DNA of 59,341 nt from Deltaproteobacteria bacterium (lineage in GTDB: Bacteria; Myxococcota_A; Polyangia; Polyangiales; Houyiibacteriaceae). Below are positions 198-59,312 of this stretch, in pieces. The stretch lies in NCBI GenBank assembly GCA_034670305.1, contig JAXMNT010000046.1, positions 1-59,341 on the forward strand, read 5' to 3'. Below the pieces are notes generated by a model that was not told where the DNA came from, searched no databases, and saw only the letters and a list, made by a program, of their open reading frames with translations. Both the position numbers and the translations under genes were made by a program. Position 1 is the first letter of the stretch, and each line of letters begins with the position of its first letter.

Positions 198-1484
198 TCA
201 CGCTGGCTTGCGTCGGGCGCGGACCGAAGCGGGGCGCTCTTTCGTCTCCACCCAGCCGGGCTTCTGACTCGGGAACAACGTAGAGGACCCAGGCAGTTCG
301 TAGCGGTAGTGCACGTCGGGCTTCAACTCGGCTCCGATCGTCTCTTCCATCCATGAGCCGTCGGGCAGCTCGACCCGCACCCGTCCACCCGCGCCCGCCG
401 CGACGTGGCCGAAGACGCCCGCTTGCGCGACGCCGCGTTTGCCGACGACCGCCACGCCCTCGCGCCCCGCGGTGGCCTGCCCCATGGGACCGGCCGTCGC
501 GACGCCCTCGTCCCCGACAACAGAGACGCCTTTCATGCCGCTCGTCGCGCTCCCCTTGAGTCCCGCGGTCGACCGGCCTCGGTGGCCGCTCACCGCGGTC
601 CCGTGGTCTCCAGCTTCCGCCACGCCATCGCGCCCCACCGTCGCCGTTCCGTGCAGCCCCACCACGACCGTCTCTCCGTCGCCGCCGGTCTTGACCATGT
701 GGGGCGCCAGCGCGTCTTCCGCGGGTGCGCCGGGCAGTCCGCGCACGAACGCGCAGACCTCCTCGTGGCTGCCGACCATCTCCACCCACCCGCCTTGCAC
801 CGTGACCGGACCGCGCGAACTCGACAGCTGCTTCTTCGGAACCGCGAGCGCAGCCCAAGTCGAGCGGCCCGTGGGCGGTGCGCCCATCTGCAACGCCCAT
901 ACATATCCGAGGGTCCCCGTCCGCACGAACGACCCCACCGGCATGAGCCGGGATCCGACCGAGCACACCAGGTAGGCCAGCGCTTCGTCGTCTGGCCGCG
1001 TCGGAGCCTCGCTTGGCGGGACGAACGCCGGCGCGTCGGCGAAGCACGCCACGCTCACGCCCGGCTTCAGCAGCGCGGCCCACGCGTGCGGTGCCGAGTC
1101 GGCGATGCGAAGCCGCGCCGTCGCCCGCGTGACCGCTGTGCCCTCGGCCGAATCCACCCCGTGTTCCGCCGACCACAGATGCGTCGTCGCGTCGTGCATC
1201 GACCAGGACGCCACCCAACCCTCGAGCACCGAAGGCACCGCCTGGTAGGAGACCTCCGCCGCGGCCTGCAGCTCCATCAAGACGCGCGCGAGCGTGTCGT
1301 CTTCCAGCAGGCGGGTGCGATGGCTGCGATCGGCGAGCGCTTGGAGAAGCGCGCCGGCCGTCCACGCACCGTATTCGGGCGCCTCCGGAAGCGGCCGGTC
1401 GAGCGACCCCCACACGAACACATCGAGGTGGAGTTCTTGGCCTTGGACATCGGCCACGCGCATCACGAACAGAGGTTCCGCCAT
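198..1484 (-). CDS. hypothetical protein with C-terminal Gly/Ala/Thr-rich octapeptide repeats (beta-solenoid-like)
   Basis: 428-aa ORF; ~11 repeats of type (A/S)xAGxxG(V/T), followed by IGAELKPDVHYRY. Confidence 0.7.
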   Translation of the reverse strand: MAEPLFVMRVADVQGQELHLDVFVWGSLDRPLPEAPEYGAWTAGALLQALADRSHRTRLLEDDTLARVLMELQAAAEVSYQAVPSVLEGWVASWSMHDATTHLWSAEHGVDSAEGTAVTRATARLRIADSAPHAWAALLKPGVSVACFADAPAFVPPSEAPTRPDDEALAYLVCSVGSRLMPVGSFVRTGTLGYVWALQMGAPPTGRSTWAALAVPKKQLSSSRGPVTVQGGWVEMVGSHEEVCAFVRGLPGAPAEDALAPHMVKTGGDGETVVVGLHGTATVGRDGVAEAGDHGTAVSGHRGRSTAGLKGSATSGMKGVSVVGDEGVATAGPMGQATAGREGVAVVGKRGVAQAGVFGHVAAGAGGRVRVELPDGSWMEETIGAELKPDVHYRYELPGSSTLFPSQKPGWVETKERPASVRARRKPA

Positions 1485-1551
1485 GGCCGCTGGATGGCGT
1501 AGCCAACGCCGCGACGCAACCGACTTCGCTGGACCAGAGCTCGAGCGTGCT

Positions 1552-26090: not shown

Positions 26091-26163
26091 CTCCGGATGC
26101 TGGACTTGAACCAGCGACAAGTCGGTTAACAGCCGACTGCTCTACCAACTGAGCTAATCCGGA
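26091..26163 (-). tRNA. tRNA-Asn (GTT), CCA not encoded
   Basis: TCCGGAT/ATCCGGA acceptor stem, AGCTCAGTTGGTAGAGC D-arm, GTCGG-CTGTTAA-CCGAC anticodon arm, GGTTCAAGTCC T-arm; followed by CTA. Confidence 0.97.
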
Positions 26164-27000: not shown

Positions 27001-27160
27001 GCTGTCGCTATATCTGGTGCTGTAGCTGTAGCTGGTAGCTGTCGCTGTCGCTGTTGCTGTCGCTGTAGCTGGTAGCTGTTGCTGTCGCTGTCGCTGTCGC
27101 TGTTGCTGTCGCTGTCGCTGTCGCTGTCGCTGCCGCTGCCTCTGCCTCTGCCTCTGCCTC
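27001..27160 (+). repeat. imperfect hexamer array (CTGTAG/CTGTCG/CTGTTG, then CTGCCG, then CTGCCT)
   Basis: read directly; preceded by TCCGAAGGA at 26987-26995. Confidence 0.92.
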
Positions 27161-27320
27161 GACTCGCGGCCAAGGATGCGGACGTCCCCCGGCACCGTGT
27201 GGTGCGACGGAACTCCCCCACACTCCCCCTCAACTCCCCCGAACTCTCCCCAAAACGAACCAGGAGCTCGCGCTGGGCTGGCACCCAACAGGAGCGTCCC
27301 GGGCACCAGCAAGACTTCAG

Positions 27321-27524
27321 GCCCGAGCCGAAGCCGAATCCGAATCCGACGCCGACGCCGACGCCGAAGCCGACGCCGACGCCGAAGCCGAAGCCGAAGC
27401 CGATGCCGACGCCGAAGCCGACGCCGACGCCGAAGCCGAAGCCGACGCCGATGCCGATGCCGAAGCCGATGCCGAATCCGAAGCCGAAGCCGCAGCCGAA
27501 ACCGAATCTGACGCCGAAGCCGCC
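27321..27524 (+). repeat. imperfect hexamer array (CCGAAG/CCGACG/CCGATG/CCGAAT) x~33
   Basis: read directly; lies upstream of the four-helix-bundle leader. Confidence 0.92.
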
Positions 27525-27593
27525 CTTGATCCTCCAGCGTGCGCCCCTTCTCGTGGAGGTTGGGCGCTGGCCCGATGGATGGTCCAGCGTAGC

Positions 27594-27740
27594 GGTCGGC
27601 GGGGTGGCGCCTCAAGGAGGCCTTCGGCCCGGCGGGATGCCCGCCGCTTCGCTGGCGCGCTTCGCGCTTGCTCGTCCTTGACCCGCCACCCCGCCGACCA
27701 CTGGGGGCGCTTCGCGCCCTCGGGCGAGTTCACGCTCGGC
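27594..27740 (+). ncRNA. putative structured leader (RNA or ssDNA) of four-helix-bundle gene A
   Basis: perfect 16-bp IR 27594-27609/27684-27699 enclosing a TCAAGGA/TCCTTGA stem and hairpins GGCCTTCGGCC, CGGCGGG-ATG-CCCGCCG, GCGCTTCGCGC; then GGGCGC-TTC-GCGCCC. Confidence 0.55.
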
Positions 27741-27760
27741 GCACACAAGGCAGGTTCTCG

Positions 27761-28072
27761 ATGCTGGTATTCGACAAGTCGCTTCTACTTCTCTCGCTCC
27801 TGGTGCGTGAGGTCTTGCCTCGCATTCGCGAGGCGTCGCTGAAGTCGCAGCTGCGGCGGGCCGCGCAGGCTGTTCCTCTACTGATTGCGGAGTCTCGGAG
27901 TGCGCGGGGCGGGAGGAACCCGGACGGGTTCTCGCGTGCTCTCGGGGAGGCGCGCGAGGTAAAGGCCGCCCTGCAGGTCGCGGCGGTCATGGGGTACGTC
28001 GAGGCAGGGGAGGACGTGTACGACCTCGCGGACCACGTCTGCGCGATGTTGTTCAAGCTGAGTCGGTCCTAG
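27761..28072 (+). CDS. four-helix-bundle protein (23S rRNA-IVP/Avd-like), copy A
   Basis: 103 aa; SLKSQLRRAAQAVPLLIAE, FSRALGEAREVKAAL, VCAMLFKL. Confidence 0.8.
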   Translation: MLVFDKSLLLLSLLVREVLPRIREASLKSQLRRAAQAVPLLIAESRSARGGRNPDGFSRALGEAREVKAALQVAAVMGYVEAGEDVYDLADHVCAMLFKLSRS

Positions 28073-28079
28073 GCCGCGC

Positions 28080-28107
28080 GGGCGGTGCGTCTCCGGACGC
28101 ACTGCCC
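28080..28107. terminator. 12-bp hairpin right after four-helix-bundle copy A
   Basis: GGGCGGTGCGTC-TCCG-GACGCACTGCCC (one G-U pair); weak U-tract. Confidence 0.45.
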
Positions 28108-28127
28108 TGTTCCCGGCATCCCGACCT

Positions 28128-28287
28128 CGAAGCCGAAGCCGAAGCCGAAGCCGAAGCCGAAGCCGATCCCGACTCCGAATCCGAATCCGAAGCCGAATCC
28201 GAAGCCGAAGCCGACGCCGAATCCGACGCCGACTCCGACTCCGCTTCCGCTTCCGCGTCCGCGTCCGCTTCCGCGTCCGCTTCCGTC
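28128..28287 (+). repeat. imperfect hexamer array (CCGAAG/CCGAAT/CCGACT, then CCGCTT/CCGCGT)
   Basis: read directly; between copy A and the convergent EGF gene. Confidence 0.92.
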
Positions 28288-28294
28288 CCTGATC

Positions 28295-29641
28295 TCAGAT
28301 GCGGCGGCGGCGGCCGGCGACGCAGAGGAACAGAAGTACGCCGGCGCCGGGGAGGGCGCCGGTGCCCGTCGTCCGACACTCACACCCGCTGCTGCTGGGC
28401 GGTGGCGTGCCGGGGCCGGCGTCGGTGCCCATCGGGCCTGCGTCGGTGCCCATCGGCCCGGCGTCCGTACCCATCGGTCCGGCGTCCGGGCCGGGGCCGG
28501 CGTCGGGGTCGACGGCGTCGGGGAGACACGTCACTCCGTCGCCGGTGAAGCCGTCGTTGCACGCGCACTCGAAGGTGCCGGCGGTGTTCGTGCAGGTGGC
28601 GTTCGTGTCGCAGTCGTCGGTTCCGTCCGCGCACTCGTCGATGTCCGGACACGTGACGCCGTCGCCCATGAAGCCGTCGTTGCACGCGCAGCTGAAGTCG
28701 CCGTCGCCGTTGGTGCAGGTCGCGTTCTCGTCGCAGTCGTCGGTTGCGGTCAGGCACTCGTCGATGTCCGAACACGCGCCCGCGCCGTCGAGCACGTAGC
28801 CCTCGTCGCAGGGGCAGCTGAAGGTGCCCGGTTCGTTCACGCACATCGCGTGTTCGCCGCAGTCGTAGTCGACGCATTCGTCGATGTCCTCACAGCGGGT
28901 TCCGTTGCCCATGTAGCCCTCGTTGCATTCGCAGGAGAAGCCGGGGACTTCGTTCGTGCAGGTCGCGTTCTCGTCGCAGGCGGTCTCGTCCGCGCACTCG
29001 TCGATGTCGACGCACGCGGCGCCCGCGGTCGGGCACTCGTAGCCGTCGTCGATCTCGCACGAGGAACATCCATCGTCCGCCATGAGGTTGCCGTCGTCGC
29101 ACGCTTCGCCGTCGCCCAGAATGCCGTCGCCACAGCCACCGGTGATCGACGCGAAGTCGATGCGCGCGTCGTTCGCGGCCGTCCTCAGGTCCGTGCCGAT
29201 GTAAACCGTGGTGCTGGCCGCCGTAGCGACGAAGTTCCCCATCACTTGCATGTAGCCCGGCACGATCGTCTCCATCGCGACAAGGGTGCCGGTCCGGTTG
29301 CCCAAGCGGATCTCTGCGAGCCCCCCGTTGCCAGCCACGAAGTACGACACGGTGTAGGTGCCGCCGATGTTGGTCGGGACGGCCTGGGTGATGCCTTCGA
29401 CGTGTCCCGCTTGGGTGCGCGGCGAACGGGCGCCTTCGTAGAGGCCGGGGTCCGTTCCGGTCGCCCAGTAGTCGCAGTCGATGCCGACCGAGCTGGAGTC
29501 GCTGCCCCACCCGGTGGGGGCGGTGTTGTGCGGAAGGGCGGGGCAGTCCTCCATGTCGCCGTTCATGAAGAGGTTCTGCGCGTCCACGGGGGACGCGAAC
29601 GCGACGAGGACGAGGGCACCAAGCGCACGCTGCAAGTTCAT
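28295..29641 (-). CDS. calcium-binding EGF-repeat surface protein with myxobacterial Cys-rich repeat and MYXO-CTERM
   Basis: signal peptide; [16 protein letters not shown]; four DIDEC...C..NA.C.N..G.F.C.C..G(F/Y) repeats; GCECR-TM-RRRR. Confidence 0.9.
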
Positions 29642-32511: not shown

Positions 32512-32865
32512 GCCGTCGCTGGTTCTGCAGCTGAGCCTGTGCTGATTCTGTAGCTGTCGCTGTCGCTGATTCTGTAGCTGCCTCTGCCTCTGCCTCTGTC
32601 TCTGCCTCTGCCTCTGCCTCTGCCTCTGCCTCTGCCTCTGCCTCTGCCTCTGCCTCTGCCTCTGCCTCTGCCTCTGCCTCTGCCTCTGCCTCTGCCTCTG
32701 CCTCTGTCTCTGCCTCTGCCTCTGCCTCTGCCTCTGCCTCTGCCTCTGCCTCTGCCTCTGCCTCTGCCTCTGCCTCTGCCTCTGCCTCTGCCTCTGCCTC
32801 TGCTTCTGCTTCTGCTTCTGGACCCGACACTCGGGCACGGGCACGGGCACGGGCACGGGCACGGG
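32512..32865. repeat. compound hexamer array: degenerate CTGNNN lead-in, (CTGCCT)x37 including two CTGTCT variants, (CTGCTT)x3, then (CGGGCA)x5
   Basis: read directly; preceded by TCCGAAGGA at 32495-32503. Confidence 0.95.
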
Positions 32866-40840: not shown

Positions 40841-40869
40841 CGCCGTCGCCCGTCGCCGCGAGCAGAGGG

Positions 40870-41066
40870 CTGTCTCTGCCGCTGTCGCTGTCTCTGCCGC
40901 TGCCGCTGTCTCTGCGGCTGTCGCTGTCTCTGCTGCTGCCGCTGTCTCTGCCGCTGTCTCTGCGCCTGTCTCTGCGGCTGTCTCTGCGGCTGTCTCTGCC
41001 GCTGTCTCTGCCGCTGTCCCTGCCGCTGTCCCTGCCGCTGTCCCCGCCGCTGTCCCTGACTCCGGC
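40870..41066 (+). repeat. imperfect hexamer/dodecamer array (CTGTCT-CTGCCG) between convergent genes
   Basis: read directly; runs up to the M20 peptidase stop codon. Confidence 0.92.
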
Positions 41067-42530: not shown

Positions 42531-42740
42531 TGTCGCGGTCGCGGTCGCGGTCGCTGGTTCTGCCGCTGGTTCTGCCGCTGGTTCTGCCGCTGCTTCTGCC
42601 GCTGGTTCTGCCGCTGCTTCTGCCGCTGGTTCTGCCGCTGCTTCTGCCGCTGCTTCTGCCGCTGATTCTGCCGCTGAATCTGCCGCTGATTCTGCCGCTG
42701 ATTCTGCCGCTGATTCTGCCGCTGATTCTGCAGCTGATTC
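42531..42740 (+). repeat. (GTCGCG)x3, then dodecamer array CTGCCG-CTG(G/C/A)TT
   Basis: read directly. Confidence 0.92.
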
Positions 42741-52606: not shown

Positions 52607-52846
<240 letters not shown>

Positions 52847-52880
52847 TCGGAGGCGAATCCGCTCCGAAGGAGAGGATGAG

Positions 52881-53025
52881 CTGTAGCTGTAGCTGTAGCT
52901 GTAGCTGTAGCTGTAGCTGTAGCTGTAGCTGTAGCTGTAGCTGTAGCTGTAGCTGTAGCTGTAGCTGTAGCTGTAGCTGTAGCTGCCGCTGCCGCTGCCG
53001 CCGCCGCTGCCGCTGCCTCTGCCCC
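52881..53025 (+). repeat. (CTGTAG)x17 perfect, then CTGCCG units
   Basis: read directly; preceded by TCCGAAGGA at 52863-52871. Confidence 0.95.
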
Positions 53026-57506: not shown

Positions 57507-57739
57507 GCCGGACTCGGGACTCGGCTTTGGGTTCGGCTTCAGGAGTCAGGTAGAGACAGCAACAGGGGCAGGGACCAGAGACAGCGGCAGGCAGCGGCAG
57601 CGGCAGCGACAGCGACAGGACAGCGACAGGACAGCGACAGCGGCAGCGGCAGCGACAGCGACAGCGGCAGCGGCAGCGGCAGCGACAGCGGCAGAAGCAG
57701 AAGCAGAAGCAGAAGCAGCAACAGCAACAGCAACAGCCT
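57507..57739 (-). repeat. imperfect hexamer array (CAGCGG/CAGCGA/CAGAAG/CAGCAA on +, CTGNNN on -)
   Basis: read directly; minus-strand TCCGAAGGA at 57749-57757 precedes it. Confidence 0.92.
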
Positions 57740-57818
57740 GTAGCCTCTTCCTTCGGAAATCGGCTCCCTTCAATCCTCCGGATTTCGGGAACACCCCAAT
57801 TGTCTGGGGGGGGTTCTG

Positions 57819-57966
57819 GCTCGGCGGCAATTTCATCGTGGCGGAGTGCTCGGTCGCGTCAAGGGTGCCTTCGGCCCCAGCCTTCGGAAGGCTGGCTTCG
57901 CCCTGGACCCGCCCTGCGCTCTCCACCGGGGGCGCACGGGGTGCGCCGCCGAGCAATGTCGCTCTG
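57819..57966 (+). ncRNA. putative structured leader of four-helix-bundle gene B
   Basis: outer stem GTGGCGGAGTGC/GCGCTCTCCAC, TCAAGGG/CCCTGGA, GCCTTCGGC, CCAGCCTTC-G-GAAGGCTGG, GGCGCAC-GGG-GTGCGCC; also a 10-bp IR GCTCGGCGGC/GCCGCCGAGC. Confidence 0.55.
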
Positions 57967-57990
57967 GTGTGTGGCGCGTTGGAGGCTCTG

Positions 57991-58302
57991 ATGATTGTTC
58001 TCGAATCTAGTTTTGTTCTCGTTGGTGAGTTGCGCGGACTGTTGGCTCAAGTTTCTCGCAAGGACCGTTCGCTCGCGGAGCAGATGCGGCGGGCGGCGCA
58101 GTCCGTCTGTCTGAACTGCGCGGAAGCGAAGAACGCGCGGGGCAAGCGGAGCGTCGATCGATTCTCCATTGCCTACGGTGAGGCCAGTGAACTGAAGGCG
58201 GCTCTTCGGTTGGTGCGGCTGTTTCGGTACGCGGAGGTTGGCGAGGAGGTCGAGCGACGCTGCGATGAGGTTTGCGCGATGCTGTATCGGCTCAGTCGGT
58301 AG
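57991..58302 (+). CDS. four-helix-bundle protein (23S rRNA-IVP/Avd-like), copy B
   Basis: RBS GGAGG at 57981-57985; [44 protein letters not shown]. Confidence 0.85.
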
Positions 58303-58329: not shown

Positions 58330-58750
58330 GGCCTCGGCTTCGGCCTCGGCTTCGGCCTCGGCTTCGGCCTCGGCTTCGGCTTCGGCTTCGGCCTCGGCTT
58401 CGGACTCGGCTTCGGCCTCGGCTTCGGCCTCGGCTTCGGCCTCGGCTTCGGCTTCGGCTTCGGCCTCGGCTTCGGCTTCGGCCTCGGCCTCGGCCAGCAG
58501 AGTCAGCAGCAGAGTCAGCAGCAGACACAGCGGCAGAGTCAGCAGCAGAGTCAGCAGCAGAGTCAGCAGCAGAGTCAGCAGCAGAGTCAGCAGCAGAGGT
58601 CAGCAGCGGAGTCAGCAGCGGAGTCAGCAGCGGAGTCAGCAGCGGAGTCAGCAGCGGAGTCAGCAGCAGAGTCAGCAGCAGAGTCAGCAGCAGAGTCAGC
58701 AGCAGACACAGCGGCAGCGGCAGCGGCAGAAGCAGCAACAGCAACAGCCT
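58330..58750 (-). repeat. compound array: (TCGGCY)x~27, then dodecamer AGTCAGCAGC(A/G)G, then CAGCGG/CAGCAA
   Basis: read directly; minus-strand TCCGAAGGA at 58760-58768 precedes it. Confidence 0.93.
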
Positions 58751-58828
58751 GTAGCCTCTTCCTTCGGAAATCGGCTCCCTTCAATCCTCCGGATTTCGGG
58801 AACACCCCAATTGTCTGGTGGGGCTCTG

Positions 58829-58976
58829 GCTCGGCGGCAATTTCATCGTGGCGGAGTGCTCGGTCGCGTCAAGGGTGCCTTCGGCCCCAGCCTTCGGAAG
58901 GCTGGCTTCGCCCTTGACCCGCCCTGCGCTCTCCACCGGGGGCGCACGGGGTGCGCCGCCGAGCAATGTCGCTCTG
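58829..58976 (+). ncRNA. putative structured leader of four-helix-bundle gene C
   Basis: as copy B, but with a perfect TCAAGGG (58869-58875) / CCCTTGA (58911-58917) stem. Confidence 0.55.
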
Positions 58977-59000
58977 GTGTGTGGCGCGTTGGAGGCTCTG

Positions 59001-59312
59001 ATGATTGTTCTCGAATCTAGTTTTGTTCTCGTTGGTGAGTTGCGCGGGGTGCTGGCGGCTGTTTCTCGCAAGGACCGTTCGCTGGGTGAGCAGATGCGGC
59101 GGGCGGCTCAGTCCGTTGTTCTGAACTGCGCGGAAGCGAAGAACGCTCGCGGGAAGCGGAGCGTGGATAGGTTTTCCATTGCTTACGGTGAGGCGAGCGA
59201 GCTGAAGGCGGCTCTTCGGTTGGTGCGGCTGTTTGGGTATGCCGAGGTTGGCGAGGAGGTGGTGCAGCGCTGCGATGAGGTTTGCGCGATGTTGTATCGG
59301 TTGAGTCGCTAG
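59001..59312 (+). CDS. four-helix-bundle protein (23S rRNA-IVP/Avd-like), copy C
   Basis: RBS GGAGG; 103 aa, 7 substitutions relative to copy B. Confidence 0.85.
   Translation: MIVLESSFVLVGELRGVLAAVSRKDRSLGEQMRRAAQSVVLNCAEAKNARGKRSVDRFSIAYGEASELKAALRLVRLFGYAEVGEEVVQRCDEVCAMLYRLSR

Follow-up and report, generated by a model that had tools for sequence, protein, structure and literature searches.

In the 59,341-nucleotide stretch of contig JAXMNT010000046.1 from a deltaproteobacterium of the Polyangiales (the whole stretch, hereafter the window), positions 27594-27740 form the core of a structured 5′ leader that lies directly upstream of a 312-nt open reading frame (ORF) at 27761-28072 on the + strand, which encodes a four-helix-bundle protein of the PF05635 family. 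We propose, at a rough probability of 0.4, that this element is the core of a conserved, cis-acting mRNA leader of the PF05635 gene and is transcribed together with it. That the leader is a real, selected RNA structure is a firmer statement, which we hold to be very probable, and its description as a new candidate RNA family fit for submission to Rfam is well supported. The leader and its gene are composed as follows.

27570-27760, + strand: leader A (A-type), matched by covariance model R1 at 27572-27763 with 122 bits, fold z = -5.1.
27570-27575 with 27720-27725: helix P0, 6 bp, 5′ strand GCCCGA and 3′ strand TCGGGC.
27594-27609 with 27684-27699: outer stem P1, GGTCGGCGGGGTGGCG with CGCCACCCCGCCGACC, perfect 16 bp.
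27612-27618 with 27675-27681: central helix P2, TCAAGGA with TCCTTGA.
27619-27629: hairpin P3, GGCC-TTC-GGCC.
27630-27646: hairpin P4, CGGCGGG-ATG-CCCGCCG.
About 27651-27673: extra inner hairpin P4′, found only in A-type copies.
27703-27719: hairpin P5, GGGGGCGC-TTC-GCGCCC.
27725-27738: further hairpin, CGAG...CTCG.
About 27747-27754: purine-rich stretch resembling a Shine-Dalgarno (SD) sequence.
27761-28072, + strand: gene A, with its ATG at 27761, 103-aa four-helix-bundle protein, PF05635 E = 1.3e-10, TIGR02436 E = 6e-11.

The minimum free energy fold of copy A coincides with the structure first drawn from the sequence (-112.6 kcal/mol, 0 of 200 shuffles as stable) and, taken alone, consists of the perfect 16-bp outer stem round a junction followed by two further hairpins; a CTTCG lies after the inner hairpins. 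Two more leaders of a second type stand near the end of the window, each followed by a gene of the same family.

57819-57990, + strand: leader B (B-type), R1 match at 57821-57993, 152 bits.
57819-57828 with 57945-57954: P0 of leader B, GCTCGGCGGC with GCCGCCGAGC, perfect 10 bp, 0 of 300 shuffles as long.
57843 (start) to 57924 (end of 3′ strand): P1 of leader B.
57859-57865 with 57901-57907: P2 of leader B, one mismatch (CCCTGGA), with P3, P4 and P5 inside.
57991-58302, + strand: gene B, 103-aa four-helix-bundle protein, PF05635 E = 1.5e-14.
58829-59000, + strand: leader C (B-type, a tandem copy of B), R1 match at 58831-59003, 158 bits.
59001-59312, + strand: gene C, 103-aa four-helix-bundle protein, PF05635 E = 6.5e-14.

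Leaders B and C keep the element order of A with different stem sequences, and every element listed in the original prediction, which had claimed this shared order, was located where it had been placed; likewise, the outer stem of A is a perfect 16-bp inverted repeat unlike the B/C stem, as had been said. The claim that the central helix covaries between A and C also stood: A has TCAAGGA/TCCTTGA and C has TCAAGGG/CCCTTGA. B, with CCCTGGA, carries one mismatch. The fold of copy C shows the same architecture (z = -2.0, 7 of 200 shuffles as stable). Within the window, the pattern TCAAGGNGGCCTTCGGCC with up to three mismatches occurs six times against 0.37 expected, three of the six being the three leaders. 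The 13-mer CCACYGGGGGCGC with up to two mismatches occurs 16 times against 14.1 expected, i.e. it is not rarer than chance, and its three exact matches are leaders A, B and C.

Pairing in the leader is maintained across diverged sequences. A structure of 37 pairs was set by hand, with each pair checked, on alignment A2, which holds 32 complete leaders of the source genome and in which RNAalifold found 25 pairs, 10 of them changed on both sides, with compensated pairs in P1, P2 and P4; this structure is the basis of covariance model R1. In alignment A7 (63 distinct sequences from the source genome and its relatives), 92.8% of cells are paired vs 71.2% after shuffling, a value that 0 of 500 shuffles reach, 30 of the 37 pairs change on both sides, and sliding the partners by 1-3 columns leaves 36-50% paired. 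In alignment A10 (73 sequences from other genomes only, found via the protein), the corresponding values are 95.1% vs 72.5%, again reached by 0 of 500 shuffles, 35 of 37 pairs changed on both sides and 33-45% paired after sliding. Related sequences inflate the shuffle tests of both alignments, and A10 includes a few weak minus-strand rows. At several positions P1 has three or four kinds of pair. P2 hardly varies apart from its innermost pair (C-G in 38 sequences, A-U in 16, G-C in 16 and U-A in 2), and the most conserved positions lie inside helices, namely P2 and P1a, not in the junctions. Covariation therefore persists in a larger alignment, and the earlier reading of conserved pairing with changed sequence as a functional RNA or single-stranded DNA (ssDNA) structure is supported, with RNA the favoured form.

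Beyond the elements described in the original prediction, the leader carries an extra outer helix, P0, whose 5′ strand ends 9-19 nt before P1 and whose 3′ strand starts 9-20 nt after it. Its geometry is constant and its sequences are lineage-specific, as in GCCCGTCGTCCGGCATC with its complement, CCGCCGCTCGGGG, CTCTCGGCGGGCTC, GCCTCCTTTTCG, GCTCGGCGGC of leader B and TGCCCGGCGG of subfamily D in the source genome. RNAduplex energies, compared with non-cognate partners and dinucleotide shuffles, discriminated poorly in such GC-rich sequence, and the longest perfect helix was used instead: of 36 distinct sequences, 23 have 8 bp or more of uninterrupted helix joining the 40 nt ahead of P1 to the 75 nt behind it, and 20 reach p <= 0.05 against shuffles; P0 is weak or interrupted in about one third. 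It extends to 17 bp in L096 and L103. Specifically, the 3′ strand of P0 in L065, CGAAAAGGAGGC, is itself the ribosome-binding site, and in L094/L095 and L102 it includes the SD or lies directly beside it, as does the 3′ strand of the outer helix in the variant leaders of L156, L181, L162 and L193. Pairing of the segment upstream of P1 with the start codon, seen in copy A as CCAGCGU/AUGCUGG, was also considered and dropped, being not kept in B-type variants.

Several features favour RNA on the strand of the gene over ssDNA: a U.G wobble in P1a, kept in 50 of the 73 sequences of A10; an excess of G.U over A.C in the relatives (34 vs 9); the fixed orientation and spacing of the leader to SD and ATG; and the presence of the SD in P0 of some lineages.

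The leader is tied to its gene across genomes. R1 matches were obtained from 8 of 40 relatives and, within the order, from 11 of 150 sampled genomes. A phylum sample of 150 genomes gave 2, of which one is the only match among its 128 out-of-order genomes, all of these being lower bounds because the large searches scored few candidates per genome under strict filters. The single out-of-order match, L113, has no evident four-helix-bundle ORF after it and is kept as uncertain. A match in L068 proved to be an unrelated 128-nt palindrome scoring on both strands and is left out of all counts; the palindrome itself (L068:1501-1628, genome G029) is near-perfect and tandemly repeated. Among 35 matches inspected outside the source genome, 34 have an SD and start codon 50-110 nt after the motif, and 27 of the 28 ORFs downstream of the motif in relatives match PF05635 (E <= 5e-4; 21 above the cut-off), the 28th being a truncated copy. 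Together with a gene or recognisable remnant at 36 of 40 copies in the source genome, this means that the motif is not equally common away from these genes.

The same association emerges when loci are chosen by protein alone. From 324 relatives confirmed by tblastn with a five-protein alignment as query, 80 loci were taken, covering Polyangiales, Polyangiaceae, Nannocystaceae, Byssovorax, Sorangium, Labilithrix and unclassified myxobacterial metagenome-assembled genomes (MAGs). In 54 of the 76 loci with at least 130 nt of upstream DNA, R1 matches on the strand of the gene and its match stops where the gene begins. Among the 22 misses, five loci of Sorangium type, four from Sorangium isolates and one from a Polyangiaceae MAG, share the architecture by eye, with the GUGCUCGG/CCUGCGCGCG loop conserved, CAAGGCC/GGCCTTG as P2 and larger inner hairpins; another clade has a different leader, in which a long outer helix includes the SD. 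As to the arrangement of units, convergent tail-to-tail pairs, each unit with its own leader, were observed at 11 of the 76 eligible protein-selected loci (L132, L133, L136, L152, L167, L170, L178, L180, L185, L186 and L189) and also at L102 from the RNA-model matches, where the genes at 876-1190 (+) and 1189-1503 (-) overlap by 2 nt; units B and C of the window are instead a head-to-tail tandem.

The source assembly (7.9 Mb) holds many copies of the unit. DNA searches recovered about 15 near-full A-type leaders, 88-97% identical, and about 16 near-full B/C-type leaders, 83-100% identical, and by tblastn the genes stand at 37 loci and fall into three subfamilies (A, B and D), the D protein being about 62% identical to B; PF05635 matches number 48. 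R1 at E <= 0.01 detects 40 leaders in the three subfamilies, with a full-length ORF directly after 33 of them and a gene found by tblastn or a disrupted remnant at three more (C19:90930, C4:128384 and C19:96522). Four are truncated units without a gene (C1:200935, C22:10044, C18:54470 and C54:5133), and one gene copy, C15:123147, has no leader. In the upstream regions, whole hairpins are swapped with the architecture kept; P4, for instance, appears as CGGCGGG/CCCGCCG, CGGCGCG/CGCGCCG, CGGCGC/GCGCCG, CGACGCG/CGCGTCG, CCAGC/GCTGG and CCAGCCTTC/GAAGGCTGG. Small repeats have inserted into leaders or genes (C10:57113-57339, C19:96076-96697, C28:6824-6996 and C68:36053-36222). Inserts observed in the genome include one of about 80 nt in P3 of one copy, one resembling a miniature inverted-repeat transposable element in a gene, with ends GTCTCTCGCG...CGCGAGAGAC, and a GGAGGGGATGTCCCATCCCCTC hairpin element that replaces the 5′ part of two B-type leaders.

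The leader corresponds to no catalogued RNA. Covariance-model searches against Rfam 15 (all 4227 families) found nothing at threshold in the whole window except a tRNA at 26091-26163; for leader A with its gene at E up to 10, the best score was 20.6 bits against a cut-off of 38.3, from unrelated families, and the loci of ten relatives gave only a tRNA and a sub-threshold microsatellite artefact. The earlier statement that this is not a known Rfam family thus holds, and no known repetitive extragenic palindrome, insertion sequence or RNA family was matched. No terminator-like platform was found at the leader. Mimicry of rRNA was rejected: when leaders A and B were compared with the rRNA contig by blastn-short, only chance matches of 10-16 nt appeared. 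Our literature search, whose coverage lay outside subscription journals, returned no description of such an element. A search of sequencing runs located the stretch in DNA-type metagenome contigs, RNA runs sharing 0.07-0.12 of its words.

That four-helix-bundle genes follow the leaders, as had been claimed, is confirmed by profile matches above the curated cut-offs for all three genes: PF05635 at 41.9-54.6 bits (cut-off 33.8; E = 1e-10 to 1e-14) and TIGR02436 at 42.5-58.9 bits (cut-off 24; E = 6e-11 to 5e-16), which places A, B and C in the family. The product of gene A additionally matches by sequence the solved protein XCC0516, PDB 2GSC (E = 1.5e-5), and PADLOC assigns the four-helix-bundle proteins to no defence family. 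The PF05635 family is very large and has solved structures, but we know of no role for it outside diversity-generating retroelements (DGRs). Its members also sit in intervening sequences (IVS) of 23S rRNA in Leptospira, Coxiella and others, which are excised by RNase III. Avd, a DGR protein, is a homologue of the family (PMC10053308). According to a preprint (bioRxiv 10.1101/2023.10.23.563531), Avd is a pentameric, positively charged barrel that works with a reverse transcriptase, and all five of its protomers contact an 11-bp stem with a UNCG loop.

In the overall architecture, P0 closes a junction holding a long arm and hairpin P5. The long arm runs through P1a, the conserved internal loop GUGCUCGG/CCUGCGCGCG with its U.G wobble, P1b and the nearly invariant P2 (UCAAGG/CCUUGA), and at its tip stand hairpins P3 and P4, both with C-UNC-G loops; SD and ATG follow some 20-60 nt further on. 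We propose that the leader may be bound by the basic, multimeric, Avd-like protein that its own cassette encodes, and that the long perfect helices P0 and P1 may be substrates of RNase III. By either route, access to the ribosome-binding site (RBS), and hence protein dosage, would be controlled post-transcriptionally. Binding of the leader by the product of its gene, whether or not RNase III takes part, is the most likely mechanism, put forward tentatively from the comparison of sequences and folds; transcription of the leader, protein binding, RNase III cutting and the translational effect are its predicted steps. There are three to four C-UNC-G loops per leader, and these, with the internal loop and its wobble, are plausible protein contacts. 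The leader accompanies a single family of small proteins and no other, which favours self-regulation through protein binding, or else a role in processing, over the sensing of a metabolite.

Several observations weigh against this interpretation. A scan of 27100-28350 for sigma-70-like promoters alone found none, and two RNA runs (X15 and X16) cover only the microsatellite at 27334-27503 and nothing of the leader or gene, which makes them uninformative on transcription. The alignments A7 and A10 were fitted to R1, which leans their pair counts toward structure. Over all 63 sequences there is no excess of G.U over A.C (44 vs 53), a result due to one recurrent C.A mismatch in copies of the source genome, chiefly of B-type (18 of 32 rows). 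In the three subfamilies of the source genome, P0 ends 35-50 nt before the SD and leaves it uncovered, so direct occlusion is not general, and in several lineages P5 and the 3′ strand of P0 overlap by 3-5 nt, which makes the structure partly ambiguous. The loops, by best pairing, are C-UNC-G triloops and not the UNCG tetraloop bound by Avd. Leader type and protein type are inherited together, so that their co-variation is uninformative on binding. Finally, a fourth four-helix-bundle type in the source genome, subfamily E, has a different leader, and the fold is thus not required by the protein family.

L197:215-420 (= G000:C14:16214-16419), C15:131727, C1:298705, C83:18949, C32:46375, C5:239589 and C63:24547: the seven loci of subfamily E inspected, several of them broken.

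The subfamily E leader starts with CTAGCAGGTCGCTGAAAAGCGACCTGC, a start that coincides with the TAG stop of the upstream gene in five loci, and continues with a (CCCTTGCC)n array and other hairpins (fold z = -2.0); there are hints that this CTAG junction reflects site-specific insertion.

Each unit of leader and gene measures about 0.6 kb and typically lies among hexanucleotide arrays, which in the window are the following.

27326-27522: (GCCGAN)n hexanucleotide array directly upstream of leader A, typical of A-type leaders (Tandem Repeats Finder).
28128-28285: two arrays downstream of gene A, first (GCCGAA)n, oriented like the upstream array, and after it one with an 18-nt period.
57555-57706: (CAGCGR)n array ahead of leader B, of the kind usual for B-type leaders (Tandem Repeats Finder).
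58330-58741: arrays of (GGCTTC)n and of (CAGCAGAGTCAG)n, lying after gene B and before leader C (Tandem Repeats Finder).

The hexamer of the upstream array differs by subfamily (GCCGAN in A, CAGCGR in B and CCGCTT in D). An array lies within 250 nt upstream of 37 of the 40 leaders, compared with 4.9% of random 250-nt windows, for which intergenic DNA alone would be the fairer null, and the genome holds 969 arrays making up 2.1% of its length. In both congeneric comparisons made, the flank of a unit is present in the sister genome at 90-91% identity with no unit beside it (about 0.55 kb of the G024 interval being unexamined). Neither target-site duplications nor sharp element ends were seen in the subfamily alignment. 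The unit is thus multi-copy, decaying and differently placed between congeneric species, and we conclude that it is probably a mobile cassette of Polyangia.

One rival reading, which we consider rather unlikely, is a pure RNase III maturation signal, in which a cut in the P0/P1 duplex would set the 5′ end of the mRNA, its stability or RBS exposure without any binding by the gene's own product. The perfect 16-bp P1 of copy A, stacked on P2, and the 17-bp P0 of L096 and L103 fit such a signal, as do the outer helices of some clades, about 19 bp long and including the SD, which would block translation unless opened or cut, and so does the family's occurrence in RNase III-excised IVS. The IVS layout itself is not seen, however: a stem enclosing the ORF, sought between the 140 nt that precede the leader and the 140 nt that follow the stop, reaches p <= 0.05 in only 6 of 36 copies and has no shared sequence, and the flanking arrays are not mirror images, 19 of the 35 copies compared being direct-dominant, 3 inverted-dominant and the rest neither. 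The single 23S rRNA match (C85:11277-14289, 3013 nt for 2925 model positions) contains no such gene, and 0 of the 48 PF05635 matches lie on this rRNA contig. Moreover, a bare cut site would need no invariant P2, conserved internal loop or capping three-way junction. A riboswitch-like sensor, whose junction would bind a small molecule or ion and switch between P5 and P0 pairing, would match the six helices and the conserved junction nucleotides CC, CUUCG and CCC, which resemble an aptamer in size and complexity, and the overlap of P5 with P0 could act as a toggle. Yet we regard it as quite improbable: the leader stands only before one family of small, probably nucleic-acid-binding proteins and never before transporters or enzymes, its most conserved positions are in P2 and P1a instead of the junctions, there are 40 copies per genome, and a terminator-like platform is lacking at the leader. 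Least probable is that the fold has no function of its own and simply comes with hairpin-prone DNA of high GC content that multiplies together with a repeated gene. The genome is indeed full of hairpin-forming small repeats and microsatellites, and near-identical copies within a subfamily are not independent evidence, but three findings go against it: compensatory changes distinguish the subfamilies and also whole families within the order, reaching four pair types at one position; the architecture is kept through the swapping of whole hairpins; and, of 76 genes selected by their protein alone, 54 have the motif in front of them; the pair counts of A7 and A10 and the protein-selected loci largely refute this explanation.

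The mobile behaviour of the unit raises a different explanation, that the leader is a propagation element, either an attC-like folded ssDNA site or an RNA copied by a retron-type reverse transcriptase with the Avd-like protein. Integron attC sites are imperfect palindromes 3′ of the cassette ORF with cores RYYYAAC...GTTRRRY, and they come with an integron integrase. The present element is 5′ of the ORF and reads GTCAAGG...CCTTGAC, by inspection the opposite order of core half-sites. The multi-copy units at 83-100% identity, the gutted and truncated copies, the non-syntenic placement in two of two congeneric comparisons and the embedding of 37 of 40 units in arrays would all suit propagation, as would the presence of three reverse transcriptases in the genome, given that Avd acts with one in DGRs (bioRxiv 10.1101/2023.10.23.563531). 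These three (C23:86418, C10:168437 and C67:18832; L114-L116), however, are of retron type RT_XIII by PADLOC (E about 1e-152 to 1e-155). A DGR was rejected as well: none of the three RVT_1 genes adjoins a four-helix-bundle gene, the nearest lying about 5 kb from an A-type unit on C67, a comparison that did not extend to template/variable repeats. More generally, no reverse transcriptase, integrase or transposase adjoins any copy, with no dedicated search for integrases. Target-site duplications and sharp ends are missing from the subfamily alignment, and both the constant distance to SD and ATG and the presence of the SD in P0 speak for an mRNA role. We therefore judge propagation improbable as the function of the leader. 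An extension of it, which we rate as similarly improbable, is that the leader and the Avd-like protein might be the ribonucleoprotein core of an undescribed selfish cassette, a free-living relative of the rRNA IVS; the leader would then be a cis signal for copying or moving into microsatellite-rich intergenic DNA, possibly through an RNA intermediate, and the hexanucleotide arrays would be by-products or landing pads.

Further repeats were observed around the units. Each leader has the pentamer CUUCG (or CUGCG) three to four times: the loops of P3, P4 and P5 carry it, as does the strand joining P4 to P2. It might be a common recognition word for a protein; the array that follows gene B (58330-58494) is (CUUCGG)n on the sense strand, and the array before gene A is its complement. 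Between array and leader, B- and D-type units carry a conserved piece, TGTAGCCTC-TCCTTCGGAAG-TCGGC...TCCTTCGGA (57735-57800 and 58745-58810 in the window), which has two further small hairpins with UUC loops. A separate short hairpin repeat round GTCAGCGAGCGCCTGAC lies just upstream of leaders in genus g27 (L064:1356-1446, G033) and recurs at more than 10 other places in sister genome G105. Hexamer and dodecamer arrays are dense in the window, with further ones at 27001-27138, 32578-32820, 40869-41058, 42552-42740 and 52632-52985, and arrays also flank homologous genes in other genera (L156, L162, L193, L196, L127 and L148). Just after unit A, tandem repeats of periods 21 and 123 (28413-28828) probably lie in a repeat-rich coding region on the - strand. 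The tRNA gene at 26091-26163 (-, 69.8 bits) is about 1.4 kb upstream of unit A, with almost all of the DNA between them tandem array, and a tRNA also stands just upstream of a unit in L128.

The leader gives the PF05635 family a testable handle, namely a conserved partner RNA of about 150 nt and six helices, and the leader RNA is a concrete candidate ligand for binding and structural work on the family. Sorangium is cultured and carries the motif, in the strains of L141, L143, L144 and L151, so regulation is testable there. Additionally, the leader connects RNA binding by Avd in DGRs with the rRNA intervening sequences, and it links the unusual hexanucleotide arrays seen in these myxobacterial genomes with a multi-copy cassette.

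Three known systems resemble the leader in part. The 23S rRNA IVS share with it the PF05635 protein family, the placement of the gene in strongly structured RNA with long stems, and the form of small self-contained units. They differ in that the units described here lie outside rRNA, their structure is wholly 5′ of the ORF instead of enclosing it, and their leader has a conserved three-way-junction arm for which an excision stem has no need. Ribosomal proteins such as L1, L10 and S15 have autoregulatory mRNA leaders, which are likewise structured 5′ untranslated regions on a single gene family with a likely nucleic-acid-binding product, and which involve the RBS, as the present leader does in some lineages; unlike them, the present leader has no rRNA similarity, so that mimicry of an rRNA site is unsupported, and it occurs in 40 copies per genome as a cassette-like unit. 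The third is the Avd stem-loop of the DGR spacer RNA of Bordetella phage BPP-1, which has a GC-rich stem with a U-N-C-G-type loop, is recognised by a homologous multimer and adjoins the gene of its protein (bioRxiv 10.1101/2023.10.23.563531). Here, by contrast, there is no adjacent reverse transcriptase or template/variable repeat (such repeats not having been searched for), and the RNA is upstream of the gene, not downstream as in the DGR. The fold is also far larger, and binding of the PF05635 protein to it is a prediction that the likeness to Avd suggests.

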